Below, piece after piece: positions 1 through 52,197 of a stretch of 52,197 nucleotides of DNA. Under the pieces are notes generated by a model. That model was not told the DNA's origin, searched no databases, and saw only the letters and a list, made by a program, of their open reading frames with translations. Within the stretch, counting starts at the first letter, position 1. Every line of letters starts with the position of its first letter. Source of the DNA: a virus (Duplodnaviria; Caudoviricetes); the IMG/VR virus record IMGVR_UViG_3300032322_000313, positions 1 through 52,197 of that record, one strand, 5' to 3'. Made by a program: the position numbers and the translations under genes.

Positions 1-1
1 A

Positions 2-529
2 GCGTGGGTTGATTCCATCCTTGATCGTCGCTTCATTCGCTCACGTTGGGGCGCACGCTCCGTAGAGATTAAACTAACAAACGGCTACGGCGGTGCGAAC
101 GCTTGGGGCAGTTACAAGATCACAGCCTCACGCGGTGCCCGTAACGAGTACGCGATGCTTCACGAAATCGCGCACACGCTAACGCCACGCGATGTTGGGC
201 ACGGACCCGAGTTCGCCGGGGTCCTGCTCTTCCTCGTACGCAACGTACTCGGGGCTGATGCACACAAAGCCCTGCTTACGGCTATGCGTGAACACGGCGT
301 TAAACGCAGTAATGCTGGCATCCCCAAGGTTAGGCCAGGCGATGCTGTCCCCAAGCCTGTCAAGGTGCGGGAACGTGAGGCAAAGAAGCGCGAACAGGAA
401 GAGGCGCGATTCAACATCATCCGTGAGGTTAATCGCGGCAACATTACTTGGAATCAAGTAATCGCTCTTGCGAAAGAAAAGCAGCGTCAAGCCGCCGAGT
501 TCAAGGCTGCATCACGCAGAGCCAAATAA
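2..529 (+). CDS. HEXXH metallohydrolase, TIGR04338/Rv0185-like (3' part; starts at 52157 across the circular junction)
   Basis: LHEIAH followed by HGPEF. Frame is open from base 2 and joins in frame to MRSKRDSQRSKVYA at 52157-52197, resembling the RDSQRxKVYAA N-terminus of this family. Confidence 0.75.
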   Translation, partial: AWVDSILDRRFIRSRWGARSVEIKLTNGYGGANAWGSYKITASRGARNEYAMLHEIAHTLTPRDVGHGPEFAGVLLFLVRNVLGADAHKALLTAMREHGVKRSNAGIPKVRPGDAVPKPVKVREREAKKREQEEARFNIIREVNRGNITWNQVIALAKEKQRQAAEFKAASRRAK

Positions 530-589
530 CCGAAACCCCGTGAGGGGTCCACCGGGATTCGCCACCCGGTGCTGATGAGGTAGGCGTAA
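529..589 (+). ncRNA. Type II hammerhead ribozyme HH1
   Basis: acc-GAAA-cccc(gtga)gggg-TC-caccggg(attcgcca)cccggtg-CTGATGA-ggt. Tail ggcg (583-586) pairs with loop cgcc (560-563). Predicted cleavage after C549. Confidence 0.95.
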
Positions 590-603
590 CGAAAGGGAAA
601 CCA

Positions 604-921
604 ATGCAGACAATCACGCTGCCGTCCTTCAAGAACATCACAAAGACCTACTGCGGATTGGGGGGATGCGCTTGCGGTTGCGGCGGCACCTACGTCGCTC
701 CCACGCACGCTGATGTTGATTCATACACGCCCCGCAATAACCGCACAGTCAAGATGCGGCTTACCAAGGTCATCAAGGCTTACGAGGCAAACCCTTCAAG
801 CGTTAGCGTGTTCCCCGGCTTCGGTAACGAGATGATCTGGGAGTACGTGTACGGGACGTACAGCGATCACAACGCGCTCGGACGGGTTGTCCGTATTTAC
901 GCCACGAAGGAGGAGGCGTGA
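604..921 (+). CDS. hypothetical early protein with GCACGCGG Cys motif
   Basis: ORF with CGAAAGGG RBS directly after HH1. Confidence 0.75.
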   Translation: MQTITLPSFKNITKTYCGLGGCACGCGGTYVAPTHADVDSYTPRNNRTVKMRLTKVIKAYEANPSSVSVFPGFGNEMIWEYVYGTYSDHNALGRVVRIYATKEEA

Positions 922-1223
922 ACACAATCAAGCGTCGCCGACCCGGACTCTACGACAGCGGGAACTACACGCTCGCAATCGGAAGCGACTGGCGGCACGA
1001 CGGATCACATCGACCATTCGTTATCGAAATCATTCGCAGGGTCTACACACCCGGCGCTGGCGCACCCAAGGGTGACGGCACTCATTACGACGCACTCACC
1101 TACAAGCGTTACCGCGCGGTTGTTCCTACGCTGCGTTTCGCAACCGCATTCCGCATCGGCGGTATCGCCATGATCACCTACCGCTGGCAGCAGCGGCTAC
1201 TCAACAAACTGGCAACAACATAA
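918..1223 (+). CDS. hypothetical protein
   Basis: GTG start, strong AGGAGG RBS, overlaps upstream stop. Confidence 0.65.
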   Translation: MNTIKRRRPGLYDSGNYTLAIGSDWRHDGSHRPFVIEIIRRVYTPGAGAPKGDGTHYDALTYKRYRAVVPTLRFATAFRIGGIAMITYRWQQRLLNKLATT

Positions 1224-1238
1224 CGAAAGGTAATCGTA

Positions 1239-1430
1239 ATGAACTACCTAGAGCAGCAGATCACACAGCAGCAAGCGCACCTTATGACTCTGGCTCAAAC
1301 CGCCCAAGCGTTGCACGGTGACCGTCCCGAGTTGTACGCGGCAATCATGGACGCTGATCGCGCCTTGGATAAAGCGTTCGCACTTGCCTGCGATACGGAT
1401 TACGCAACAGCCGTTGCGCTCACAGAATAG
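1239..1430 (+). CDS. hypothetical protein
   Basis: CGAAAGG RBS at 1224. Its stop codon overlaps HH2 stem II. Confidence 0.7.
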   Translation: MNYLEQQITQQQAHLMTLAQTAQALHGDRPELYAAIMDADRALDKAFALACDTDYATAVALTE

Positions 1431-1493
1431 TCGAAACCCCGCTACGGCGGGGTCGCGCAGAAATTACCTACTGCGCCTGACGAGACAGGTGAA
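1430..1493 (+). ncRNA. Type II hammerhead ribozyme HH2
   Basis: gtc-GAAA-ccccgc(tacg)gcgggg-TC-gcgcag(aaattaccta)ctgcgc-CTGACGA-gac. Tail aggt pairs with loop acct. Cleavage after C1454. Confidence 0.95.
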
Positions 1494-1507
1494 CGAAAGG
1501 GAAGCAC

Positions 1508-1756
1508 ATGGATATCAAAGAGATCGTAAAGCAGAGCGAAACATTTGTTGATAACTACCCACTGTCCTCGGACAACATGGGTGGGCGCTCCTATCGGGTA
1601 ATGCTGCACGCGGTAATGACAATGGCTCGCGAGTCAGGTGCCATTCGGACCGACGAGGATCACGACATCCTTCTCAGCCTGCTTGTGAAATCGGATATGG
1701 ATGCACAGCGCATCGGTTGGGAAACAGCCTTGAAGAATAACGAGGTTGCATCGTGA
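1508..1756 (+). CDS. hypothetical protein
   Basis: ORF with CGAAAGGGAAG RBS after HH2. Confidence 0.75.
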   Translation: MDIKEIVKQSETFVDNYPLSSDNMGGRSYRVMLHAVMTMARESGAIRTDEDHDILLSLLVKSDMDAQRIGWETALKNNEVAS

Positions 1757-1857
1757 AACTCACACGACGCGGCGAATACGCCATCGCAATCCTCGCAACA
1801 ACAATCATGCTCGCGGTCATGGGGATCGCGGGATGGATCGAAGGGGGTATGCAGTAA
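1753..1857 (+). CDS. small membrane peptide (MKLTRRGEYAIAILATTIMLAVMGIAGWIEGGMQ)
   Basis: Read manually. GTGA and TAATG overlaps with neighbours, basic N-terminus plus one hydrophobic helix. Confidence 0.65.
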   Translation: MKLTRRGEYAIAILATTIMLAVMGIAGWIEGGMQ

Positions 1858-2123
1858 TGAGTACCGCAACAGATACACAGCGCAAGACACTCACGGTCGG
1901 TGAGTTGATTAACGAGTTGTCGAAACTGGATCCGAACAAGCCGATCCTGTTCAGCGCAGCGTCAGCCGATTACTGGCAAACCCGGCTGGCGTACCGATTC
2001 ATCAACAACAACGTTCACGAAATGAACATCAAGTGGGACGAATACCACGGGGAATACTCAGTCCACGATCCTGAGGAGGACGACGATTATGACTACGACG
2101 GAACCGTCTACGTCTTTTGTTAA
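1857..2123 (+). CDS. hypothetical protein (MSTATDTQ..., LTVGELINELSKLDP)
   Basis: Translationally coupled ATG, acidic C-terminus. Confidence 0.7.
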   Translation: MSTATDTQRKTLTVGELINELSKLDPNKPILFSAASADYWQTRLAYRFINNNVHEMNIKWDEYHGEYSVHDPEEDDDYDYDGTVYVFC

Positions 2124-2234
2124 TAACGAGCCGATCAACGTGGCAACCGAAGAGGGGCGACGCCGCCTCGCAGAACTCGCGGCTAACGGACCAATCTTCA
2201 AGGTCCGCCATGCTTGCGATCAACGTACTGACTA

Positions 2235-2292
2235 GATCGAAACCCCGCGAGGGGTCCGGTACTGAATGGTGCCGCTGATGAGATCGTCAGTC
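2235..2292 (+). ncRNA. Type II hammerhead ribozyme HH3
   Basis: gatc-GAAA-cccc(gcga)gggg-TC-cggtac(tgaatg)gtgccg-CTGATGA-gatc. Tail tcag can pair with ctga at the stem I apex. Cleavage after C2256. Confidence 0.92.
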
Positions 2293-2311
2293 ACACGAAG
2301 GGGTAACGCTA

Positions 2312-3313
2312 ATGGCACACGAAATCGAAATCATGGAGGACGGCACCGCAGCGTTCTTCAGCAATCGCGAGGTTCCCTGGCACAACCTTGGCGTACTCAC
2401 CGATTCCGCGCAGACTGTGGACGATGCGCTGCGGCTCGCCATGTTGGACTGGACCGTTTACAAGAGTGAGGAACCAGTCACCACAACCGTTATCACCGAG
2501 AACGGTGTGGCTAACGTCCCGGTGCCCGACCGATTCGCCACCTACCGCGACCATCCCATCCTCGGTTTGCAGGGACTTGGCGTGGTCGGCAATCAGTACA
2601 CAGTCATCCAGAACCGTGAGGCGTTCGACTTCCTCAATCTGCTCGCTGATGAGTCCGGTGCTGTGTTCGAAACCGCTGGATCTCTGCGCGGTGGCACTCG
2701 CGTGTTCATGTCCATGAAGATGCCGCAGCACATCAGCATCGCCGATGGTACGGACACGGTAGACCTGTACCTTATTTGCACCACCAGCCACGACGGGACT
2801 CAAGCCTTCACGGTCTATCTGTCGGCGGTTCGCCCGGTTTGCGCCAACACGGTCCAGTTCGGACTTAATGGTGCCGCCCACAAGTGGCATATGAAGCACA
2901 CAAGCAGCATCAAGGGCAAGATCCAGCAGGCACGGGACACGCTCGGATTCGTTGTCGATTACGCCGATGCGTTCCAGCAGGCAGTCGATCAACTTGTTTC
3001 GCTGGAAATGACACGTTACGAGTTCCAGGGATTTACGGAGTCACTTCTTCCTACGAACAAGGATATGTCTACGCTTCAGATCTCACGCACCGAAGAGGCA
3101 CGCAGCGAAATCTTCGGACTCTGGAATGCGCCGACACAGCAGAACGTGGCTAATACGCGGTGGGCAGCGTTCAATGCCGTCACAGAGTGGGCTGATTGGT
3201 TTAAGCCTGTCAAGGCTGGTAAGCGTGACGAGGATCTTGTTCGCGCAGAGCGCGTGTTCAGCGGGGGCGTGGAGGGCATCAAGCAGAAGGCTTACGCACT
3301 CCTTTCCCGGTAA
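2312..3313 (+). CDS. DUF932 / TIGR03299 phage-plasmid family protein
   Basis: Motifs PWHNLG, VGNQYTVIQNREAF, FETAGSL, SHDG, RPVCANT, TRWAAFNAVTE. Confidence 0.9.
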   Translation: MAHEIEIMEDGTAAFFSNREVPWHNLGVLTDSAQTVDDALRLAMLDWTVYKSEEPVTTTVITENGVANVPVPDRFATYRDHPILGLQGLGVVGNQYTVIQNREAFDFLNLLADESGAVFETAGSLRGGTRVFMSMKMPQHISIADGTDTVDLYLICTTSHDGTQAFTVYLSAVRPVCANTVQFGLNGAAHKWHMKHTSSIKGKIQQARDTLGFVVDYADAFQQAVDQLVSLEMTRYEFQGFTESLLPTNKDMSTLQISRTEEARSEIFGLWNAPTQQNVANTRWAAFNAVTEWADWFKPVKAGKRDEDLVRAERVFSGGVEGIKQKAYALLSR

Positions 3314-3326
3314 CCGCCACCCAACG

Positions 3327-3367
3327 TGGGGCGGGAGGATATTCCTTCCCTTTCTCCTCCCGCCTCG
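3327..3367 (+). promoter_or_regulatory. 13-bp hairpin with pyrimidine loop complementary to the early-gene RBS
   Basis: tggggcgggagga / tcctcccgcctcg stem with loop tattccttccctttc. No U-tract follows. Confidence 0.6.
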
Positions 3368-3409
3368 CCTTGGCTTGCGGTTGCAGCCAATCATAGAAGG
3401 GTTATTCGC

Positions 3410-3814
3410 ATGGATTTCAAGCGCACATCTGAGGATTCATGGTCGTGCAGCGACGACCGCTATGGCATTCGTTTGGAGCGTGACCCGTGGATCCGCCCGG
3501 AGGGTTCCAATCCGCCCGTCTACGTCGTTTACATCGGCAAGTACGGGCCGTTCAGCCAGTCACCGCTGGCAACACTTACGGCGTTCGGTGCTGCCGTGGA
3601 TTACATCAAGCAGGATGCAGCCCTGCCCGTGTTTAACGAGGCTGGCGACTGCCGCTGGTGCGGGTTGTCGCAACTTGATTTGGCTAGTGCGCCGCGCTGG
3701 TGGTTTGGGTGCAACTTGTGCGAAACGGAAATGGAGCGCACAGCAGACAATCAGGACGAAATCGAACGCAGCATCGCGCAGCACGAACAGGAGTTCGAAC
3801 CGCTGCACGACTGA
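3410..3814 (+). CDS. hypothetical protein with CxxC...CxxC
   Basis: AGAAGGG RBS before MDFKRT, Cys pairs CRWC and CNLC. Confidence 0.65.
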   Translation: MDFKRTSEDSWSCSDDRYGIRLERDPWIRPEGSNPPVYVVYIGKYGPFSQSPLATLTAFGAAVDYIKQDAALPVFNEAGDCRWCGLSQLDLASAPRWWFGCNLCETEMERTADNQDEIERSIAQHEQEFEPLHD

Positions 3815-3879
3815 GCGGTGTGTCACACCATTCAAGGCAGCCTCAGAATGTAGGATGCCGTAACGAAAGAGGGGTTCGC

Positions 3880-4308
3880 ATGGCACGCAACATTGTTATT
3901 GACCTAGGACTGGTTTGCCCGTCCTGCCGCGAGTACGACGTATGCGGTGATGACTGCATCTGCCCGTCGTGCTGGTATCCAACACGATTCGATCCGAAAC
4001 AGCGCGACGATGCTGTTAATGCGTGGCGTTTCTTCGCCCCGGTAACCGCAGCGATGAACGAGGAGAATATCAACTGGGGATGGGCTACCGAAGAGAAGTA
4101 CCAGAACCGACTTGAGTTCAGCCTAGAGATCATAACAAAGGACGAGCGCTGGTACGAGGTCGTCAAGCACGACGGTAAGTATCTCGTTACGCATTGGCGC
4201 ATGAAGCCCGGATCGCGTGAGCGTGACGAGCCACCAGAGCCGATCCTTCTGGATGAGGTCATCGCTGATACACCGGACGAGGTTGTTAATCGCCTCGCTG
4301 ACCGTTAG
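3880..4308 (+). CDS. hypothetical zinc-ribbon protein
   Basis: CGAAAGAGGGG RBS, CPSC...CPSC. Confidence 0.65.
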   Translation: MARNIVIDLGLVCPSCREYDVCGDDCICPSCWYPTRFDPKQRDDAVNAWRFFAPVTAAMNEENINWGWATEEKYQNRLEFSLEIITKDERWYEVVKHDGKYLVTHWRMKPGSRERDEPPEPILLDEVIADTPDEVVNRLADR

Positions 4309-4315
4309 GACTTTG

Positions 4316-4525
4316 ATGCCGACCAACTATTTCACCGTCAGCGATATCGCTCGCATGTACGGCGTAACGCGCGGAACGATTACCGCGTACAAGGCGCGCG
4401 GTCATATGCCGCCGCCAGATATGCAGATCGGGCGTACTCCGGTCTGGACATTGGAAACACTCACCGCATGGCGACCAATCGCGGGTCGCAAGACACGAAA
4501 GGGTAGTACGGATGTTTCTAACTGA
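4316..4525 (+). CDS. helix-turn-helix DNA-binding protein (AlpA/excisionase-like)
   Basis: FTVSDIARMYGVTRGTITAY...MPPPDMQIGRTPVW. Confidence 0.8.
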   Translation: MPTNYFTVSDIARMYGVTRGTITAYKARGHMPPPDMQIGRTPVWTLETLTAWRPIAGRKTRKGSTDVSN

Positions 4526-5222
4526 CGAACAGTACGACCAACTACTGAAGCCAATCGCAGCGTCACGCATCGCACAGAGATCACAGTCAGGTGTAACGCT
4601 TTCGTATTTGGAGGCGTGGGACGTAAAGGCACACCTAATCCGCATCTTCGGATTCGGCAACTGGTCCGCTGATGTTCTCTCAGCCGAACTCATGTTCGAA
4701 GAGAAGGACGAGAAGGGCCGCTGGAATGTTGGGTACAAGGTAATCATGCGGCTGACGATTTACGGGGCAAGCGTCGATGACCCTGACGCCACCTACACGG
4801 AGGCTGCGGTCGGTTCAGCGACCCTAGGTAACCGTGGTGAGGCGCACGATATGGCCGTTAAGACCGCAGAGTCAGACGCCTTGAAGCGTGCAGCCATTAA
4901 CCTCGGCACACAGTTCGGCCTTAGTCTCTACGATAACGGCAACCGCAACGACGTTATCAAGAGAACGCTGAATCCCCCGGTTGGTTATGGACAGGGCGCA
5001 CCGCCACCCGACACCGCACCCAATCCTGCACTTATGCAGATGTTGGAGGCTTGGGTTGCAGAGTCAGAGGTCTGCGATGACCGCAACGATCTGAAGCAGA
5101 TTTGGGATACCGCTGACGAGGCGGGACAACTTGACACCCCGGTTAATGCGAACGGCGCAGGCACAACGCTACGCAACGTAATCCTTAACCGCCTTGACGA
5201 AATCGACAACGCTAATGAATAA
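4512..5222 (+). CDS. Rad52/Rad22-family (Sak) ssDNA-annealing recombinase
   Basis: LSYLEAWDV...IFGFGNWS and AVKTAESDALKRAAINLGTQFGLSLY. Confidence 0.9.
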   Translation: MFLTDEQYDQLLKPIAASRIAQRSQSGVTLSYLEAWDVKAHLIRIFGFGNWSADVLSAELMFEEKDEKGRWNVGYKVIMRLTIYGASVDDPDATYTEAAVGSATLGNRGEAHDMAVKTAESDALKRAAINLGTQFGLSLYDNGNRNDVIKRTLNPPVGYGQGAPPPDTAPNPALMQMLEAWVAESEVCDDRNDLKQIWDTADEAGQLDTPVNANGAGTTLRNVILNRLDEIDNANE

Positions 5223-5583
5223 GATCATCACACCAGCAGACGTAGAGGCGAAACTGATTTCGCTGAGTCGTGAATACGATGAGGCGCACGCGAGCCTGGA
5301 ACAAGCAGAACTCACCTACGCTAACGCTAAGTCGTTGTGGGAAATCAACAGCGCACGCATGAGACTGTCGATAGCCGCACGCGCACTTGATTCCGGTCGC
5401 AAGATCACCGTGCAGGAGCGTGACGATGAGGCACTACTGCGATGCCAGGATGAGTTAAGCGCACTCAATAATGCGGAGGCGGTGGTTCGCGCCTCACGCG
5501 CTAACACCCAACGGTTGCGTACACAGATTGATATTGCGCGGTCCGTAGGAACAAGCGTGCGCGCAGCGATGGATATGTCATGA
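5215..5583 (+). CDS. hypothetical coiled-coil protein
   Basis: Coupled ORF in the recombination module, helical composition. Confidence 0.7.
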   Translation: MNKIITPADVEAKLISLSREYDEAHASLEQAELTYANAKSLWEINSARMRLSIAARALDSGRKITVQERDDEALLRCQDELSALNNAEAVVRASRANTQRLRTQIDIARSVGTSVRAAMDMS

Positions 5584-5669
5584 ACTGGATCGACGTAATC
5601 GTCATTCTGATGGTATTCGCACTCGGATACTGGCTCGGAATGACCGGGGATGGAGAGGACAAGCGATGA
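5580..5669 (+). CDS. small membrane peptide
   Basis: MNWIDVIVILMVFALGYWLG..., ATGA overlaps on both sides (read manually). Confidence 0.5.
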   Translation: MNWIDVIVILMVFALGYWLGMTGDGEDKR

Positions 5670-5800
5670 GGGGATTCGTGGAACGGATGGAGTTCTTGGA
5701 GCGATTTGCGCCAGACGACACCGTTATCGGATACGACGAGGTTATCGAATCATTCCTTGACGACGCCGATGCGCGAAAGGATGCAGCGAAAGATGGATAA
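5666..5800 (+). CDS. small acidic hypothetical protein
   Basis: MRGFVERMEFLERFAPDD..., fills the gap, GGAGAGG RBS (read manually). Confidence 0.45.
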   Translation: MRGFVERMEFLERFAPDDTVIGYDEVIESFLDDADARKDAAKDG

Positions 5801-6443
5801 GGACTTCGTGATCTCGTTATTCAGTAACAAGACCAGCGCTCGGTCGATGCAGAAGGCAATCGGCCCAAGTGAGATCGGTGGGTGTAAGCGCCGAACGTGG
5901 CATCGCCTAGTGCAAACGCCACCAACAAACCCAGATACGTTGTCGATGGCAGCCTGGATGGGTACGGCGATCCATGACGCTATCGAACGCAAGATCAAGC
6001 GAACCGATAATCCCTTCGATCCGCGTTACCGCACGGAAATGGAAGTAACACACGACGGGTTGACCGGGCACGTTGATCTGTATGACACAGAGACATACGA
6101 GGTTGTCGATTGGAAGACCATCACAAAGAAGAAGATCAGTTACTTCCCGTCAAGCCAACAGCGCATGCAGGTACAAATCTACGGTTACCTGCTCACGCAG
6201 AATGGCTACCGCGTGGATAACGTGACACTCGTTGGCATCCCGCGTGACGGTAACGAACTTGATCTTGTCGTACATACGGAACCGTACGAGCCGTTGATTG
6301 CTCAGGAGGGTTTGGCGTGGGTGCGTAGCATCACCGACAACCTTGACGTTATTCCTGAGCCTGAGGAATCGCGGCGATTCTGTCAGGACTATTGCCAGTT
6401 CTTTGACCCATCGGGTGAGGTAGGTTGCCCCAGCCGAGGTTAA
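5793..6443 (+). CDS. Cas4-like PD-(D/E)XK exonuclease
   Basis: GPSEIGGC, GTAIH, GHVD...VVDWKT, QVQIY, C-terminal CxxxCxF...C. Confidence 0.85.
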   Translation: MDKDFVISLFSNKTSARSMQKAIGPSEIGGCKRRTWHRLVQTPPTNPDTLSMAAWMGTAIHDAIERKIKRTDNPFDPRYRTEMEVTHDGLTGHVDLYDTETYEVVDWKTITKKKISYFPSSQQRMQVQIYGYLLTQNGYRVDNVTLVGIPRDGNELDLVVHTEPYEPLIAQEGLAWVRSITDNLDVIPEPEESRRFCQDYCQFFDPSGEVGCPSRG

Positions 6444-10311: not shown

Positions 10312-10904
10312 AGATCGAAAGCGTTAGCCCAGATAGTTTGGAACTAGACGAGCGTAACGCGAGACTGCACGGCAAGCGCAACATGGCAGCGATCACCGAA
10401 TCCCTCGCCAAGTTTGGGCAGCGTAAGCCAATCGTCGTCTGGAACAACACCGTCATCGCTGGTAACGGAACATTGCAGGCTGCGCGCGAACTCGGCTGGA
10501 AGAACATCGACATTACCCGCGTACCCGATGACTGGACCGAGGACAAGGCACGCGCATACGCGCTCGCTGATAACCGCTCCGGTGACCTCGCGGACTGGGA
10601 CGATTCGATGCTCAACGAACTGCTCACAGAACTAGAGCAGTCCGGTTGGGATCGCATGGATCTCGGTTTCGAAGTGCCTGCCGCACCAGTCGATCCCTAC
10701 GCAGAGTGGGAGGACATGCCGGAGTACGAGAACACGAACATGATGCCAGCCGCTCGCGTCATCGTCTCCTTTCTCACGTTGGAAGATGCGGAGGACTTCT
10801 TCAAGATGCTTGACCGTCCTCGCGCCACTTCGATCTGGTGGCCACAGGAAGAGTTGGAGCAGCGAGCATTCACCAAGTCTCATGTGTTCGTTAACGAGTC
10901 ATGA
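10308..10904 (+). CDS. ParB/Srx N-terminal-domain protein
   Basis: NARLH...SLAKFGQRKPIVV...IAGNGTLQAA...ALADNR. Confidence 0.85.
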   Translation: MKIESVSPDSLELDERNARLHGKRNMAAITESLAKFGQRKPIVVWNNTVIAGNGTLQAARELGWKNIDITRVPDDWTEDKARAYALADNRSGDLADWDDSMLNELLTELEQSGWDRMDLGFEVPAAPVDPYAEWEDMPEYENTNMMPAARVIVSFLTLEDAEDFFKMLDRPRATSIWWPQEELEQRAFTKSHVFVNES

Positions 10905-11836
10905 TCCCGCGTTTCCCGATCTACATACCATCGAAGGGCCGCGCTCAGACGGCGTTAACGCCACGCGCATTCGACAAGATGGGCGTCCCGTACTATCTGG
11001 TTGTCGAAGATCAAGAGTACGACGAGTACGCTGCGGCAAAGTTCGCTAACGCAACCATTCTCGTACTAGATAGACAGTTCCAGAAGGACTACGACCCATG
11101 CGATGAGTTTGGGGATACGAAACCGCCCGGTGCTGGTCCCGCCCGTAACTTCGGGTGGGAACACAGCATCGCTAACGGATTCGATTGGCATTGGTGCATC
11201 GACGACAACATCAGGCACTTCAGCCGATTCCACAAGAACACTCGCGTACTCGTAGGCGACGGCACCATCTTTCATGCCATGGAAACCTTCTGCATGCGTT
11301 ACACAAACGTTGGTATGGCTGGCCCACACTACGAGTTCTTCATCGTATCCCGCAGCAAGCATCCGCCGTTCATCGTCGGGTCGCGTATTTACTCATGCAA
11401 CCTAATCCGCAACGAGGTTCCGTACCGCTGGCGTGGTCGCATGAACGAGGACACCATCCTCTCGCTGGATATGTTGAAGGGCGGTTGGCAGACGATCCTC
11501 TTTAACACTTTCCTGGCTCACAAGATGCGTACCCAAACAATGACAGGAGGGTACACAAGCGAGTTCTATGCAAAGGAAGGCACGAAGGGTAAATCAGAGA
11601 TCCTTGTGCGCCTGCACCCTGACGTAGCGCGACACATGATCCGTTACGGTCGTGAGCATCACTACGTTGACTACAGCCAATTCGCAAACATGCCACTCAT
11701 CAAGCGCCCCGACTACGACCCGAGCAAGGAACCGAAATACAACATGGCGCTGAAAGAGACTGGCAAGGAGCGAAAGCGTGATGCACCGATTCCCGAGTGG
11801 ATGGAGGAGGAACTGCGTAAATCATCCAACAAATAA
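10901..11836 (+). CDS. TAGT/GREB1-like glycosyltransferase (putative DNA base glycosylation)
   Basis: PIYIPSKGRA, GPARN, DDNI, RIYSCNLIRN, WRGRMNEDT, TQTMTGG. Confidence 0.75.
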   Translation: MIPRFPIYIPSKGRAQTALTPRAFDKMGVPYYLVVEDQEYDEYAAAKFANATILVLDRQFQKDYDPCDEFGDTKPPGAGPARNFGWEHSIANGFDWHWCIDDNIRHFSRFHKNTRVLVGDGTIFHAMETFCMRYTNVGMAGPHYEFFIVSRSKHPPFIVGSRIYSCNLIRNEVPYRWRGRMNEDTILSLDMLKGGWQTILFNTFLAHKMRTQTMTGGYTSEFYAKEGTKGKSEILVRLHPDVARHMIRYGREHHYVDYSQFANMPLIKRPDYDPSKEPKYNMALKETGKERKRDAPIPEWMEEELRKSSNK

Positions 11837-13456: not shown

Positions 13457-14996
13457 GCAACTGCTAAGGAACGCTACGCGCCACAAGCGCGAAGCCCTGC
13501 TCGGGCAAATGAGCGAAGCATCACTCATCGCGCTCGCGAACGATCTGCGTCAGGGCGTAGATCCACGCTGGGCGCGTTACCGAAACGACCCCGTTGGATT
13601 CGTAACGGACGGTCTGGGCGAATCCGTATGGAGCAAGCAGGTAGAAATCCTCAACTCCGTACGCGATAACAAGCGCACCGCCGTTCCCGCGTGCCACGCA
13701 CCCGGAAAGTCGCACATCGCCGCACGCGCAATCGCCTGGTGGTGCACCGTACACCCCGCCGAGAAGGTCCGTGTCGTCACGACAGCGACCACATTCCGAC
13801 AGGTCAGAGGAATCCTATGGCCTCACATTCGACGGCTTCATACTGCTCACAATCTGCCCGGCGAAGTCCTCACAACCGAATGGAAGATCAACGACACACT
13901 CGTCGCGGACGGGTTCAGCCCTGCCGACCATAACGAGACAGCGGTGCAGGGTATCCACGCAGAGCATTTGTTGATTGTCGTGGATGAGGCAGGTGGCATC
14001 AGCCCCATTATCGGTAACGCAATCGAAGCCCTCATGACAGGTGGGCACACACGCTTGCTACTGCTCGGTAACCCACCCACAGATAACGTCGGATCATGGT
14101 TTGAACGCGCCTGTAACAGCGACCTTTACAACGTTATCCCTATCGACGCATTCTCCACCCCAAACTTCACCGGAGAACCAGTAGGAGATTGGGCGCGAAA
14201 CCTCGTAGACCAAACATGGGTCAATGATGTTACCCGCGAGTTCGGTGAGGACTCCGCATTCGTACAAGCCCGTGTGTACGCACGCTTCCCACGCACAACA
14301 ACAAACGTAACGCTACCGATTGACTGGCTGGAATCCGCAGTCGTACCAGAACCAACCGAAATCGGTCCCATACGGCTAGGCGTGGACGTTGCCGCAGACG
14401 GCGGTGACGAATTCGTGATTGCACGGGCCGAAGGAATGTGCACACGACTCGTACATACGTCCAGCCACAACGACAATGCGGTAACGGTAGCGGGACTTGT
14501 CCTCACAGAGATTCACAAGGCGCAGGAATACCACGCACTTCATAACATTAACCAGCGTGTCAGGGTCAAGATCGACAGCATCGGTGTTGGTTGGGGTGTT
14601 GCTGGACTCCTAAGCGAATGGGGCAAAGAATCCAGGCATGACGCGGAAATCGTCGCCGTTAACGTAGCCGAACGTGCGTACGACAACAACAAGTTCGCTA
14701 ACCAGCGAGCCGAAATGTGGTGGAACATGCGCACCCTCATCCAACCGGACGAGGAAGGCCGACAGGAACTATCCCTATGCGTGGGCAAGAAAGAGATCGC
14801 ACAACTCACAGCACCGACATATCGCCCAAACAGCAGCGGTCGCATCCAAATCGAATCGAAAGCAGATATGAAACGCCGTGGCATTAGCAGTCCCGACCGT
14901 GCGGAAGCGATACTGTTGGCGTTATTCGAACCGCCTAGCAAGGAACCGATGCTCGCGCCCCCGCTGAGCATTACTCAGACGAGTGGATGGATCTAA
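13437..14996 (+). CDS. terL: terminase large subunit
   Basis: Walker A variant HAPGKS, Walker B IVVDEA, LLGNP, nuclease GVDVAADGGD and SPDRAEA. Confidence 0.92.
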   Translation: MMRMTPEQLLRNATRHKREALLGQMSEASLIALANDLRQGVDPRWARYRNDPVGFVTDGLGESVWSKQVEILNSVRDNKRTAVPACHAPGKSHIAARAIAWWCTVHPAEKVRVVTTATTFRQVRGILWPHIRRLHTAHNLPGEVLTTEWKINDTLVADGFSPADHNETAVQGIHAEHLLIVVDEAGGISPIIGNAIEALMTGGHTRLLLLGNPPTDNVGSWFERACNSDLYNVIPIDAFSTPNFTGEPVGDWARNLVDQTWVNDVTREFGEDSAFVQARVYARFPRTTTNVTLPIDWLESAVVPEPTEIGPIRLGVDVAADGGDEFVIARAEGMCTRLVHTSSHNDNAVTVAGLVLTEIHKAQEYHALHNINQRVRVKIDSIGVGWGVAGLLSEWGKESRHDAEIVAVNVAERAYDNNKFANQRAEMWWNMRTLIQPDEEGRQELSLCVGKKEIAQLTAPTYRPNSSGRIQIESKADMKRRGISSPDRAEAILLALFEPPSKEPMLAPPLSITQTSGWI

Positions 14997-16012
14997 CCGT
15001 GACCAAACGTGTCCTCCTCACAGGAGCAAGCGGCTTCGTTGGCTCCCACGTTCTCCGCCACCTACTCACCACGACAGACTACGAGGTAGTCTGCCTCGTG
15101 AGTTTCCGCCACCGTGGTCTGACGGACCGGATTCGGCTGGCGGTCGGTGGCGTGGATGAGTCCTACACGCGGACGCGTGTTATTACTCACGACTTGGTTG
15201 CTCCCGTATCCCCTGTCCTGGCATCGGAGATAGGCGATATCGACTACATCCTTAATGTGGCATCTGAGTCGCACGTAGATCGAAGTATCTTGGAACCGGG
15301 GCCATTCATTATGAATAACGTGGCTCTGATGACGAACATGCTGGACTACGCCAGGGCTTACCCGGTGGAGCGGTTCCTGCATGTATCCACGGATGAGGTT
15401 TATGGGCCTGCGATGCCTAACCAGGCGCACCGGGAATGGCAGGATCAATACTTCCCGTCAAATCCGTACAGCGCGTCGAAGGCTGCACAGGAATCCATCG
15501 CGTTCTCGTACTGGCGAACCTATGACATTCCCGTCATCGTCACTAACACAATGAACATCATTGGCGAATCGCAGGACCCTGAGAAGTTCGTGCCTATGGT
15601 GATCAAGCGTGTCCTTGCCGGGCAGGTTGTTCCCATTCACGCATCCCCCGGTGGCGTTATCGGATCACGGTTCTACCTTCACGCACGCAACCAGGCTGAT
15701 GCGCTCTTGTTCGCTATTGCACAGGACGCCCCGTTGTATCGGGATCGCTCGTTCCCTGCCAAGTGGCATGTTGTTGGGGAGCGCGAGGTCGATAACCTTG
15801 AAATGGCTGAAATGATTGCCGGGTACATCGGTAAGCCGCTGCGTTATGAACTCATTGACTTCCATTCCTCCCGTCCAGGCCATGACCTGCGTTACGCACT
15901 TGATGGGGGAAAGATCGCGGATGCCGGATGGAAGGCCCCGCTCTCCTTGGAGGAATCCTTGGAGCGCACTATCAAATGGACGCTAGACCACCCCGAGTGG
16001 CTAGCACTTTAG
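14987..16012 (+). CDS. rmlB: dTDP-glucose 4,6-dehydratase-like NDP-sugar dehydratase
   Basis: TGASGFVG, ASESHVDRSI, VSTDEVYG, YSASK, RPGHDLRY. Confidence 0.88.
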   Translation: MDLTVTKRVLLTGASGFVGSHVLRHLLTTTDYEVVCLVSFRHRGLTDRIRLAVGGVDESYTRTRVITHDLVAPVSPVLASEIGDIDYILNVASESHVDRSILEPGPFIMNNVALMTNMLDYARAYPVERFLHVSTDEVYGPAMPNQAHREWQDQYFPSNPYSASKAAQESIAFSYWRTYDIPVIVTNTMNIIGESQDPEKFVPMVIKRVLAGQVVPIHASPGGVIGSRFYLHARNQADALLFAIAQDAPLYRDRSFPAKWHVVGEREVDNLEMAEMIAGYIGKPLRYELIDFHSSRPGHDLRYALDGGKIADAGWKAPLSLEESLERTIKWTLDHPEWLAL

Positions 16013-16951: not shown

Positions 16952-17557
16952 TTACGCGGGAATAACGCGCTTCGCTCCCGCCTTGATGTAGTCCGTTTCG
17001 GGAATAATGTCGCAGAAGTTCCCGGTTATAACATCCAGATAAGGAACAACCCTAGGGTTACGCTTCTCAATGACCGCGCAGGATTGGTAAATATCCACGC
17101 GCATGACCTCTTCGATGGGCAGCCACGAATCATCCTCTAATGCGAGGTCGCGCACTAGCATCATTATCATTTCTGGATTGTAAGTTTCGTAGATGAGAAG
17201 TCCACCTGGGCGCAGGAACGGCCACGCATAGGGTTGCATTGTCCCGGTGCTGTCAATGACTACATCAAACCATTGACCTTTAAGCGTGTTACGCAGGGCG
17301 ATACGGTCTTTCGTATCACATTCGATAACGCCTAGGTTGGGTAGTTCGCTTGCTCGCGGATCTGCGTCGATTGCGGTAACCGTTGACCCTTCGATGAGTG
17401 TGTTACGCCAAATCTCAACAACGCCACCGTTACCAACACCAATCAGCAGAAGCGATAACGCCCTTGGATGCACGATGCGCTCAACGGCGTGCAGCGTTGC
17501 CTCGCTCTGTACAGCGATACAGCCTGCATGGTTCAGGAAGTGATCGCGGTAGCCCAT
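16952..17557 (-). CDS. SAM-dependent methyltransferase-like protein (degenerate)
   Basis: LLLIGVGNGG, AID, FDVVIDS, LRPGGLLIYE. Confidence 0.65.
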   Translation of the reverse strand: MGYRDHFLNHAGCIAVQSEATLHAVERIVHPRALSLLLIGVGNGGVVEIWRNTLIEGSTVTAIDADPRASELPNLGVIECDTKDRIALRNTLKGQWFDVVIDSTGTMQPYAWPFLRPGGLLIYETYNPEMIMMLVRDLALEDDSWLPIEEVMRVDIYQSCAVIEKRNPRVVPYLDVITGNFCDIIPETDYIKAGAKRVIPA

Positions 17558-18591
17558 GATTCCCCCATTCCTGAGATATCGAAATGTTCCCGCACGATCT
17601 CCCGGTTCCGCTTCGCCTCAGCGATACGCGTAGACGGGTCTAGGAGTGCCGTAGCGTGGTCAAACCACTCATCCGGTGTAGCCGCCAGCCTTCCCACTCC
17701 CGCAGCCGCTAGGACCCTGTATTCCTCTGTCGGTGTTGCGATAAACGGGATCCCAGCAGCCGCATACTCCAACCCCTTCAAGTAACTCTTGGCCTCATTG
17801 AATGGGCCAGGAGTGAGTGGAACAAGGCCAACGTTGAATGCGTGCATCATTTCTGGAACCTTGCTGATTGTGCGCATCGGTGACGTCTGAACGCGTTTAA
17901 CACCGCAACGCACACCGAAGTGCTTAGGGTCACCCGGAATATGTCCCGCATGATGAACGCGGATACCGTGTTGTTTCACAAATGCGGGTAGCCAGTCCCG
18001 CAATAACTCGATATCGCCGGAACGCCATAGCGTGCCACCAAGCCAACCAAACGTGGGATTCTCCGATTGTGTTACCGGCGTGAACCTATCCGTTTCGACA
18101 GCGTTGCGGACAAGACGAACATCGCGGCACCGACGACCGTAGAAATCAGCCAAGAATGCGGTAGATACCGTTATGAAATCGGCTTGTCGAATGCCTATCT
18201 CGTACCACATTCGATTGTTGGTTGGGTTAGTGTGCGGATTGGTTGCCGCGTGAGCGATATTCTCCTGGTGCATATCGAAATGGAAGTCGTCAATATCCAC
18301 CACGACGGTTTGCCCTTTGGATTGCATGGTCTGGAAGAGTTGCGGCACGCTGGCGTGCATCATCAACTTATAGACGTTGATATCGAAACCAAATAGAGCG
18401 CCATCGTCTTTGGCTAATCCGATGCCCATAGGGTCGTGCGGTCGCGGTTGCCCGACCATAGCGTCGTAACCCATATCGGTAAGCAGTCGGCAGGGAAGAA
18501 CCTGGCGGTAGTAAGCACACCCGTTAGCCTCGGGTGGATCGGTTTGATTATTCCAATCCCCGCTTATGAAAGCGATACTAAGATCGGACAT
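17533..18591 (-). CDS. glycosyltransferase, GT4/GT-B-like
   Basis: GCAYYR, VDIDD, GLVPL...FNEAKSYLKGLEYAAAGIPFIATP. Confidence 0.85.
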   Translation of the reverse strand: MSDLSIAFISGDWNNQTDPPEANGCAYYRQVLPCRLLTDMGYDAMVGQPRPHDPMGIGLAKDDGALFGFDINVYKLMMHASVPQLFQTMQSKGQTVVVDIDDFHFDMHQENIAHAATNPHTNPTNNRMWYEIGIRQADFITVSTAFLADFYGRRCRDVRLVRNAVETDRFTPVTQSENPTFGWLGGTLWRSGDIELLRDWLPAFVKQHGIRVHHAGHIPGDPKHFGVRCGVKRVQTSPMRTISKVPEMMHAFNVGLVPLTPGPFNEAKSYLKGLEYAAAGIPFIATPTEEYRVLAAAGVGRLAATPDEWFDHATALLDPSTRIAEAKRNREIVREHFDISGMGESWATAITS

Positions 18592-50310: not shown

Positions 50311-51030
50311 TTATCTCCTTGCTGCCGAAACGTGGTAGGTGATGGAGCCGGACGATCCGGCGAGGGAATGCGTCGCACGGAGATACTGATTCACCGTGCC
50401 CGTGCTGGTGATGCTTTCCCCAACCGTCGTGCTTGCACTAACGGCGGAGAACGTGACGAGATCAACCCACGTTGCGTTATCAGCGGAGTGCTGAACCTTA
50501 ACCGTGGATGCGCCGTCACGAGTATTGGCAGTAACGTGCAGGTTGAATAGTCCACCGTTACTGGTTGCGGAGCCATCGTTGATCCCGGTGAGGGATGCCG
50601 ACGTTCCGGTGTTTGTCAGAGGGTTAAGGGCGCGGCCCGAGTAAAGGCCACCATCAGCCTGCACCTCGGCGCTAATGGCAACAACGTCACCGACAGGGGA
50701 GGAAACCTCGTACGAGGTCAACTGTCCGTTAGCGATAATGCTGCGTGCGCCAGCGGTGGCACCCTCAGGAAGCACCGTGAAAGTGTTATCCTCCTGGCCG
50801 ATAGCCCCGGTCAGCACATCATTCGATGCGTTAGCGGTGCCGTCGAAGAGGCCGCTCGTTGAGATCGTGCCATCACCCAGACCCGTAATGTATGTCTTGT
50901 CGTCATCCGCGAACGTTGTCGTCTCTGCGGTTTCGATTTCCTGCGTCTGTGTGGCCTCGTTAAGGAACGGGGACATATCGGTGCCGTTCATGAGAACGAC
51001 CGTGCGCTTACCGTGACGGAATGTGGGCAT
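50311..51030 (-). CDS. tail tube paralog with C-terminal extension
   Basis: MPTFRHGK...ETAETTTF..DKTYITGL...YEVSSPVGDVV plus ~100 aa (VKVQHSADNATWVDL). Confidence 0.8.
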   Translation of the reverse strand: MPTFRHGKRTVVLMNGTDMSPFLNEATQTQEIETAETTTFADDDKTYITGLGDGTISTSGLFDGTANASNDVLTGAIGQEDNTFTVLPEGATAGARSIIANGQLTSYEVSSPVGDVVAISAEVQADGGLYSGRALNPLTNTGTSASLTGINDGSATSNGGLFNLHVTANTRDGASTVKVQHSADNATWVDLVTFSAVSASTTVGESITSTGTVNQYLRATHSLAGSSGSITYHVSAARR

Positions 51031-51239
51031 CACTTGCCTCCCTTGCCAGGAGACTTAGGCTCACGCGCAGCAGTTGTCTGTGGCGTTACCGCATCGGCGG
51101 TAGCGTTATCGGTGGGTTCGATGATGTTCTGCGCAAGAAGCCACGACACGCTCTTGCTTGGAAGATCGTTAACGATTGCGCCAGCCTCGGCACGCTTCCC
51201 CTCGTATTCGATACCGACGAGGATCTTGTATGAAGCCAT
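51030..51239 (-). CDS. small hypothetical virion-module protein
   Basis: AAGGAG RBS, first ORF of the minus-strand operon. Confidence 0.65.
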   Translation of the reverse strand: MASYKILVGIEYEGKRAEAGAIVNDLPSKSVSWLLAQNIIEPTDNATADAVTPQTTAAREPKSPGKGGK

Positions 51240-51557
51240 TCCGCTCCTTGGACGCGCGGCAACCCCGGCATCCCTGGGGCCACGCGAGCCACGGCGAGAG
51301 CGGGGTCACGGGTGGACACGTTGCTGAGATCATCATACCGGATAGACAGACTCTCAGGCGGTGGGATTTCCGCTGGTATTTCCCTATGGGGTTCGCCCTA
51401 AAGCTCGTTCTACGTCTGTCTATCTGCCGTCATCTTGGATCGTGGTGGTCGGCGCGGTCGGCATCTCAGCCATAGATTAACGCTTTGTAACAACTCGATA
51501 ACACAACGCCGAAATGCAGCCTCAGGATGCGGGTCGCTGTAGATTCATCTACATAAC

Positions 51558-51775
51558 TTCACAGCGGATCGGGGCACCGCCCCGGGCGAAGGCGGGGGAC
51601 GATCCCCCCGCGCGCGACCCGGCAAGCCTGTGAACCAGCCCGATCCGAACCGCTTTGGGCCACCCGGAAGGGACCTACCGCGAGACTAACCAGCCGACGG
51701 CGATCACCGCATTCTGCGCCAGAACCGTTGGAGGGGACAATGCGCGGCAAGACGAGCCGCAGTAACCCAAGGTGC
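51558..51775 (+). ncRNA. candidate structured ncRNA / early-operon leader
   Basis: No convincing ORF. Multiple complementary segments, including crossing helices ttcacag/ctgtgaa and cggatcggg/cccgatccg. Confidence 0.5.
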
Positions 51776-51788
51776 AACAAACTTCCCA

Positions 51789-51866
51789 GTCGAAACCCTG
51801 CCGTTATTTAACGTGTAACGGTAGGGTCCGCAGGAATCGCCGTCCTGCGCTGATGAGACAGGCGTA
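51789..51866 (+). ncRNA. Type II hammerhead ribozyme HH4
   Basis: gtc-GAAA-ccctgccgtta(9 nt)taacggtaggg-TC-cgcagga(atcgccg)tcctgcg-CTGATGA-gac. Tail ggcg pairs with loop cgcc. Cleavage after C51828. Confidence 0.95.
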
Positions 51867-51883
51867 CGAAAGGGGAGCCAATC

Positions 51884-52078
51884 ATGAAGTACCGAGTGAC
51901 ATTTACTGCCGAAGGTTGGAAGCGGAACATTCAGCGCGACATTCTGTGCAGCGATCCTCGCACAGCGCGCGACACCGTTACTGGCCTTAATCCTGGCTGC
52001 ATCATCGTGAGCGTCCGCAAGATCAAGGAGCGCGGCATTCCTCGTGAGCATCTTGCCGAGGCTGCCGCCAACTGGTAA
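51884..52078 (+). CDS. hypothetical early protein
   Basis: CGAAAGGGGAG RBS, flanked by HH4 and HH5. Confidence 0.7.
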   Translation: MKYRVTFTAEGWKRNIQRDILCSDPRTARDTVTGLNPGCIIVSVRKIKERGIPREHLAEAAANW

Positions 52079-52081
52079 CGA

Positions 52082-52142
52082 GTCGAAACCCCGCGATGGG
52101 GTCGCACGGACATAGCCGCCCGTGCCTGATGAGACAGGCTAA
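52082..52142 (+). ncRNA. Type II hammerhead ribozyme HH5
   Basis: gtc-GAAA-cccc(gcgat)gggg-TC-gcacgg(acatagccgc)ccgtgc-CTGATGA-gac. Tail ggcta pairs with loop tagcc. Cleavage after C52103. Confidence 0.95.
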
Positions 52143-52156
52143 CGAAAGGGAAGAAC

Positions 52157-52197
52157 ATGCGATCAAAGCGAGACAGCCAACGCAGCAAGGTGTACGC
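52157..52197 (+). CDS. 5' end of the TIGR04338-like metallohydrolase (continues at base 1)
   Basis: MRSKRDSQRSKVYA with CGAAAGGGAAG RBS. Confidence 0.75.
   Translation, partial: MRSKRDSQRSKVY

Follow-up and report, generated by a model that had tools for sequence, protein, structure and literature searches.

Clustered type II hammerhead ribozymes that bear a pseudoknot and flank individual genes or small gene groups were described in prophages by Perreault et al. in 2011, together with the proposal that long phage transcripts are processed at these elements (PMC3088659; this and the other sources are cited for the excerpts on which we rely). Polycistronic fragments of about 2 kilobases (kb) from three prophage arrays were fully cleaved in vitro, and one of them, the Agrobacterium array around ardA, which has a tail gene next to it, was also cleaved in Escherichia coli (PMC3088659). 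Here we analyse an array of five hammerheads in an entire viral metagenome record of 52,197 bases (IMGVR_UViG_3300032322_000313; Duplodnaviria, Caudoviricetes), which is classed as linear and has an estimated completeness of 91%; this whole stretch is called the window below. Judged from their sequences, the five elements are genuine type II hammerheads, far beyond chance, and we consider it probable that these five, all of the active type, would cleave a single + strand polycistron into insulated units. The original prediction knew of no characterisation of so dense an array as a system. The suggestion that such arrays are uncharacterised finds no support: prophage arrays had been published with their cleavage in 2011, and dense arrays are common in viral contigs. 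Given the 2011 publication, the array in the window is therefore a further instance of a published arrangement.

Like the 2011 prophage arrays (Agrobacterium tumefaciens, Azorhizobium caulinodans and Clostridium scindens), the array in the window lies on one strand, flanks variable genes, and consists of type II hammerheads with a pseudoknot. It differs from them in number, with five copies in the window and seven to eight in close relatives against three in the arrays tested there, and in its boundaries, a conserved non-coding leader before the first ribozyme and, in every case, a DUF932 gene after the last; moreover, cleavage was demonstrated for those arrays, whereas for this one it is predicted from sequence. 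To the known arrangement the present analysis adds a general fixed-leader geometry, cassette exchange at ribozymes, and the conserved leader before the first ribozyme.

The early polycistron of phage T7 is cut between its cistrons by RNase III, with hairpin-capped 3' ends and 5'-phosphate/3'-hydroxyl (OH) termini. The array in the window would likewise be cut between cistrons, but where T7 depends on a host enzyme, this RNA would cut itself and leave 5'-OH and cyclic-phosphate ends. In the haloviruses HF1 and HF2, an early polycistronic transcript has a hammerhead variant a few nucleotides (nt) 5' of its first gene, and its mapped 5' end is no more than 3 nt from the cleavage site (PMC3088659); unlike the present array, this variant occurs singly, has an unusual structure and belongs to an archaeal virus. 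The insulator RiboJ raises and standardises downstream expression (PMC6206723). The phage elements resemble it in that a self-cleaving ribozyme just 5' of a ribosome-binding site would strip away variable upstream RNA, a likeness of working and not of family; RiboJ is engineered, single, and placed behind promoters, whereas the phage device is natural, repeated within an operon, and would also shape the upstream 3' end. A 2019 review repeated the processing idea and described the roles of bacterial self-cleaving ribozymes as largely elusive (PMC6765202). A search for later functional work on phage hammerhead arrays, which left most subscription papers outside its reach, returned only the 2011 paper and reviews, and no paper linking hammerheads and DUF932.

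Identity and fold of the five hammerheads

The core pattern CGAAAC..GTC..CTGANGA, with free spacers, has five matches in the record, all on the + strand, where 0.14 were expected from 100 dinucleotide-preserving shuffles and none of the shuffles (0/100) reached five. A purpose-written scanner that demands the core plus stems I, II and III of at least 4, 3 and 4 base pairs (bp), respectively, returned the identical five elements and no others, and found none in 200 shuffles. All five lie on the + strand in gaps separating + strand open reading frames (ORFs), and the scanner places their cleavage sites after 51828, 52103, 549, 1454 and 2256, exactly where the original prediction had put them. 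The Rfam family Hammerhead_II (RF02276; gathering score 37 bits) scores four elements, at 528-589 (44.1 bits), 1429-1494 (37.4), 51788-51867 (36.2) and 52081-52143 (35.9), and aligns to all four over its full length (model positions 1-66, covering the core, the helices and the pseudoknot tail). A covariance model specific to the phage clade, built on 13 gap-free copies and scanned over the window with filters off, gave the elements (lettered a to e in operon order) scores of 88.3 bits for c, 69.0 for b, 67.9 for d, 50.5 for a (50.5-59.1 over two scans) and 38.3 for e. This clade's copies are better described by their own model (38-88 bits) than by RF02276. The best site after these scored only 17.1 bits in the window and has none of the stems, so that the count stands at five, with no sixth copy hidden. 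Pattern, stem scanner and clade model agree on the five + strand positions first proposed.

The core is intact in all five copies, which read CUGAUGA or CUGACGA (the latter in hammerhead d), with GAAA and GUC. Canonical pairs at 10.1-11.1, 1.1-2.1 and 15.1-16.1 have served as a rejection criterion for hammerheads (PMC3088659); in all five elements these core-adjacent pairs are G-C, C-G or G-C, and A-U, respectively. Across the window the capped stem I has 6-7 bp, the open stem II 3-4 bp, and the capped stem III 5-13 bp, with stem III lengthened to 12-13 bp in hammerhead a and stem II of 4 bp in hammerhead e. Each copy has 4 or 5 complementary bases between loop I and the 3' tail, as in hammerhead c, where 560-563 pairs with 583-586, and hammerhead e, where ACUGA of loop I faces UCAGU of the tail. 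A pseudoknot of this kind is the tertiary contact of most type II hammerheads; mutants of it are inactive and are rescued by compensatory changes, and rapid cleavage at low magnesium requires the contact (PMC3088659).

The original prediction described the stems as differing in sequence but compensatory, and comparison across the clade bears this out. Applied to the window together with its relatives, the clade model found 65 copies, 47 of them distinct, and stems I-III and the pseudoknot covary across these 47. In their alignment 95.9% of cells are paired, and double-sided changes occur at 15 of 20 pairs overall, including all seven of stem I. The pseudoknot (helix 4) is paired in 94.6% and shows double-sided changes at three of its five pairs. 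Covariation scores 0.474, compared with 0.140 in shuffled alignments (0/500 as high), and structures slid by 1-3 columns score at most 0.059; the alignment was fitted to the model structure, which favours the nested helices, whereas the pseudoknot columns lie outside the model.

Layout of the array and the spacing around each ribozyme

In operon order, across the junction of the two record ends, the array and its genes are arranged as follows.

51553-51788, + strand: conserved stretch, about 235 nt long and apparently non-coding, that separates the divergent structural operon from hammerhead a
51788-51871, + strand: hammerhead a, first in the operon (minimal element 51789-51859; predicted cut after 51828; leader to the ATG at 51884 of 55 nt)
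51884-52078, + strand: first cistron, an ORF of 64 amino acids (aa), without match in family searches
52081-52147, + strand: hammerhead b (minimal element 52082-52135; predicted cut after 52103; leader to the ATG at 52157 of 53 nt)
52157-52197, + strand: 5' end of a gene with an HExxH motif, continuing at 1-529
1-529, + strand: 3' part of the HExxH-motif gene (stop codon TAA at 527-529, sharing one base with stem II of hammerhead c)
528-593, + strand: hammerhead c (minimal element 529-581; predicted cut after 549; leader to the ATG at 604 of 54 nt)
604-1430, + strand: three-gene unit (ORFs 604-921, 918-1223 and 1239-1430), without significant family match
1429-1498, + strand: hammerhead d (minimal element 1430-1486; predicted cut after 1454; leader to the ATG at 1508 of 53 nt)
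1508-2235, + strand: four-gene unit (ORFs 1508-1756, 1753-1857, 1857-2123 and 2089-2235), without assignment in family searches
2235-2293, + strand: hammerhead e (minimal element 2235-2285; predicted cut after 2256; leader to the ATG at 2312 of 55 nt)
2312-3313, + strand: DUF932 / phrog_1221 gene (Pfam PF06067, E=7.5e-60; PHROGs, E=9.2e-94)

The ends of the record are adjacent within one gene, because 52157-52197 and 1-529 join in frame into a single 189-aa protein with an HExxH motif, and because its homologue in the relative L139 (5183-5803, - strand; 207 aa) runs unbroken across the window junction, with 20 extra residues exactly there. The five hammerheads therefore form a single array of about 2.7 kb. 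The original prediction had reached this length by circularising the genome; the ends do adjoin, but the record is classed as linear and up to about 60 nt may be absent at the junction, which leaves no space for another ribozyme. The ribozymes delimit units of one, one, three and four genes, as foreseen in the division into units of one to four genes, and these are followed by a long ribozyme-free remainder led by the DUF932 gene.

Every upstream stop codon stands close to its ribozyme: it shares one base with stem II at c, d and e, and ends 3 bases before stem II at b. The leaders from the predicted cut to the next start codon are 53-55 nt long in the window, each with a 5' hairpin and a ribosome-binding site, GAAAGGG or GAAGGGG, that ends 6-9 nt before the start codon. 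Across six genomes of the clade, all 42 ribozymes have a leader of 52-57 nt, and the upstream stop starts 2-9 nt 5' of stem II in 36 of the 42, at exactly 2 nt in 23. The same geometry was sought in unrelated viral contigs, among 166 distinct type II hammerheads found by pattern, 120 of which could be evaluated (an ORF of at least 40 codons was required): in 88 of the 120 the leader up to an ORF start measures 45-70 nt (median 54), against 146 of 600 random positions. Since leader geometry is fixed in the clade and general in unrelated contigs, the ribozymes act like 5' parts of the gene that follows them. For the ribosome-binding site, the unpaired probability is predicted at 0.63-0.84 in the cleaved and 0.32-0.72 in the uncut leaders, by a folding program that ignores the pseudoknot.

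The stretch at 51553-51788 is conserved among relatives L136-L144, with insertions and deletions that are not multiples of three, a long-range helix of 9 bp, and one hairpin replaced between relatives. Its folding z-score is -1.80 on the + strand (10 of 200 shuffles equal it) and +0.73 on the - strand; it matches no Rfam family, and a motif scan found it in the same clade only, at 11 loci. The consensus fold has 68 pairs and a covariation term of +2.4, which is no support, over only four sequence types. A leader peptide, the 23-codon ORF at 51741-51812 with a GGAGG site, was considered and rejected, as its start codon is absent in relatives. Provided that the operon's transcript includes it, the stretch could be a distinct structured RNA freed by the first cut. 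No gene precedes the first ribozyme, and the separation of cistrons is therefore not its entire role; it would trim an upstream leader.

For the cassette proteins, searches of Pfam, PHROGs, PADLOC and PDB gave no assignment, and the HExxH protein (HEIAH) has only sub-threshold metallopeptidase matches in Pfam and no PDB relative. Within the three-gene unit, 1223-1241 (+ strand), before the gene at 1239, shows the same ACGAAAGG ribosome-binding context as the leaders that follow ribozymes, here without a ribozyme; a hammerhead may formerly have stood there and since been lost. Downstream of DUF932, the same strand encodes a recombinase, an exonuclease, a replication initiator, RusA, SSB, a ParB-like protein, a glycosyltransferase and terminase, and the tail genes and others matching structural families are on the opposite strand; from this gene order, the operon is presumably an early one. 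A scan for sigma-70-like promoters in 51000-52197 and 1-4000 found none, which is a weak indication, as the model may not be the host's. No + strand terminator lies between the ribozymes, terminator-like sites on that strand being found only 3' of the DUF932 gene, and a check for transfer RNA and transfer-messenger RNA genes found none. Further along the record, genes resembling a beta-glucosyl-HMC alpha-glucosyltransferase (10901-11836, + strand), a nucleotide-sugar epimerase (14987-16012, + strand) and another glycosyltransferase (17533-18591, - strand) hint that the phage may modify its DNA or another glycan.

Distribution among relatives and exchange of cassettes

Relatives were gathered by a search with the major tail protein, independently of the ribozymes, which yielded 58 loci. 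Those with tail proteins 94-95% identical and at least 3.4 kb of upstream sequence have 8, 8, 8, 8 and 7 ribozymes in the same place, and one phage at 90% tail identity has five by the model and four by the scanner. The architecture is thus present as seven to eight copies in close relatives and is absent from distant ones; in seven distant relatives, no ribozyme of any Rfam class was found at gathering score. The last ribozyme of every clade array is orthologous and stands directly 5' of DUF932 (all five relatives analysed). A DUF932 gene is also the first gene after a hammerhead or array in unrelated contigs: L037 and L027/L028 (five ribozymes each), L017 and L114. The cultured actinophages Mufasa8, Jace, LuckyBarnes and Warren have no ribozyme near DUF932 (Rfam, E<=0.1), and the association of DUF932 with hammerheads is therefore not universal. 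A pattern-based search of viral contigs for DUF932 relatives returned none, and megablast of window positions 1-6000 against cultured phages gave no match. Among sequencing runs matched to window positions 1-3400, none was listed as RNA that contains the sequence; two runs labelled RNA-Seq are probably of DNA and are available as contigs only. The clues to the host are one weak partial match to a metagenome-assembled genome of Acidobacteriota and the nearest cultured tail proteins, which are those of Arthrobacter phages at 38% identity.

Among viral loci selected by the pattern, 17 of 130 carry at least three ribozymes, with a maximum of 8 in 4 kb (some loci share a contig). Dense same-strand arrays were observed in the unrelated contigs L071 (8 in 4 kb), L057 (7), and L037 and L027/L028 (5), while L029 and L030 have six hammerheads each, seven of them distinct on their shared contig. 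In the dense unrelated arrays, a ribosome-binding site and then a start codon come after each hammerhead.

Turnover of the genes lying between ribozymes is fast: in six phages with major tail proteins at least 90% identical, the first cistrons behind 42 ribozymes belong to 20 families. Members of one gene family, the homologues of 604-921, follow three distinct hammerheads, and the genes that follow one and the same hammerhead differ. A comparison of L138 with L139 shows insertions and deletions of whole cassettes, with all four breakpoints (4/4) within hammerheads. In comparisons of six genome pairs, 58 alignment ends fell inside arrays, and 37 of them lay no more than 15 nt from a hammerhead, where 22% would be expected, although these ends are not independent. 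Relatives' contigs from other samples part from the window at 599, 1431 and 1477/1510, and one skips 2107-2228. This turnover of cassettes fits the 2011 remark that the genes flanked by prophage arrays are not constant (PMC3088659), and it suggests that the ribozymes may double as crossover points. Shortly 3' of the array, at 4512-6443 (+ strand), lie genes for a recombinase and an exonuclease of the PD-(D/E)XK type, whose products might promote recombination between short homologous stretches, for instance the ends of the ribozymes.

Proposed processing of the transcript and competing explanations

When a hammerhead cuts, the upstream piece receives a 2',3'-cyclic phosphate and the downstream piece a 5'-OH. 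According to the proposed mechanism, the five elements would be transcribed within one + strand polycistron, and each would fold soon after its synthesis and cut after GUC. Owing to the type II layout, the products would then be joined solely by the 3-4-bp stem II, so that they would part at once. The upstream product would keep its stop codon, which would allow normal termination, and would end in a cyclic phosphate two bases past the G+C-rich hairpin of stem III. The downstream product would begin with a 5'-OH on the first base of the stem I hairpin and carry the 53-55-nt leader with its ribosome-binding site. These termini, a 5'-OH followed by a hairpin and a cyclic phosphate after the stem III hairpin, were part of the original prediction, and they follow from established hammerhead chemistry. 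Both would presumably be poor entry points for exonucleases and for endonucleases that depend on the 5' end. In this way the leader of about 235 nt and the four small accessory units would be split from each other and from the block of DUF932, recombination and replication genes, with no host nuclease, and every unit would gain an identical, context-independent 5' leader and a hairpin-capped 3' end; each ribozyme would serve as both insulator and processing site. That cleavage takes place in the cell, and that it affects the stability and translation of the messenger RNA (mRNA), we infer from this arrangement.

Several observations weigh against processing of this kind. What a 5'-OH means for stability varies with the nucleases of the host, and in Bacillus the 5'-OH product of the glmS ribozyme is degraded by RNase J. 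In only three of the five leaders is cleavage predicted to make the ribosome-binding site more accessible, and in two there is no change, in a calculation that cannot model the pseudoknot. In vitro, 4 of 18 hammerheads conforming to the consensus were inactive (PMC3088659). The Rfam search, which had been put forward as a check on the elements, reported four of them, of which two reach the gathering score and two fall about 1 bit short, and left hammerhead e unreported even at E<=10. Four phages at 93% tail identity have one or two copies, and at 41 loci (L152-L192; 40 of them at 86% identity or less, and L190 without upstream DNA) no ribozyme was found at E<=0.001; because the relatives at 93% hold one or two copies and the distant ones none, the array is dispensable for such phages.

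The 5'-OH and 2',3'-cyclic phosphate ends of cleaved RNA are substrates of RtcB, and pairs of ribozymes might accordingly free segments for a host ligase of the RtcB type to circularise or splice. Though the end chemistry fits and the possibility is named in PMC3088659, we regard this as very improbable: the excerpts of that paper report that such products were sought without success (data not shown there), the segments are ordinary coding units with their own ribosome-binding sites, and no ligase gene occurs among the 22 neighbouring proteins scanned. It would be still more surprising if the five had merely arisen by chance or were degenerate remnants that have lost the ability to cleave. A simple core can arise by chance in large databases, and three of the five copies lie below the Rfam threshold or are not reported, to which may be added the inactive consensus hammerheads (4/18; PMC3088659); but five pattern matches against 0.14 expected, the absence of any element passing the stem scanner in 200 shuffles, compensatory changes clade-wide, and a fixed position relative to stop and start codons all argue otherwise. 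Regulated cleavage, in which the ratio of cut to uncut RNA would set the relative or temporal expression of the units in response to a terminating ribosome, magnesium or temperature, seems unlikely. With the stop 2 nt before stem II in 23 of 42 cases, a terminating ribosome would sit over stem II as well as the 5' half of stem III, and regulation of phage hammerheads has been raised as a possibility (PMC3088659); all five elements have, however, the consensus core and the pseudoknot tied to fast cleavage at low magnesium (PMC3088659), no conserved competing pairing was seen, and compaction of the phage genome would explain the tight stop spacing equally well.

The turnover of cassettes raises a different explanation, that the ribozymes persist mainly as recombination linkers whose conserved segments provide short homologies for the swap, gain and loss of cassettes, with cleavage mattering chiefly because it makes new cassettes expressible. 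This is compatible with transcript processing, and as the principal reason for the array's persistence we hold it to be possible but doubtful. The 20 families among 42 first cistrons, the shuffling of families between hammerheads, the four L138/L139 breakpoints and 37 of 58 alignment ends at or near hammerheads, the divergence of relatives' contigs at 599, 1431 and 1477/1510, and the recombinase and exonuclease encoded just downstream all speak for it. Alignment ends at hammerheads are, on the other hand, partly expected wherever conserved RNA abuts fast-evolving genes (and the 58 ends are non-independent); the shared segments measure merely about 12-25 nt, and covarying stems and pseudoknot indicate selection on an RNA fold, not just on DNA homology. 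A broader and rather speculative proposal is that of an integron-like, ribozyme-bounded cassette region, in which the hammerhead ends would act as crossover points for accessory genes (possibly of host takeover or anti-defence), self-cleavage would supply a uniform ready-made leader that lets each incoming cassette be expressed regardless of its neighbours, and the first ribozyme would in addition free a functional RNA of about 235 nt.

Self-cleavage of one polycistron into insulated units remains the explanation that we favour, and the clade provides a natural comparative series, with near-identical structural genes accompanied by 8, 7, 5, 4, 2, 1 or 0 ribozymes at the same position. The fixed leader geometry, the stop codons embedded in ribozymes and the exchange of cassettes constrain what the ribozymes are for. 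If they do serve both as insulators and as boundaries of exchangeable cassettes, such arrays would offer natural, pre-tested parts for polycistronic constructs, and their dual role would account for the concentration of such ribozymes in the parts of phage genomes where accessory genes vary.

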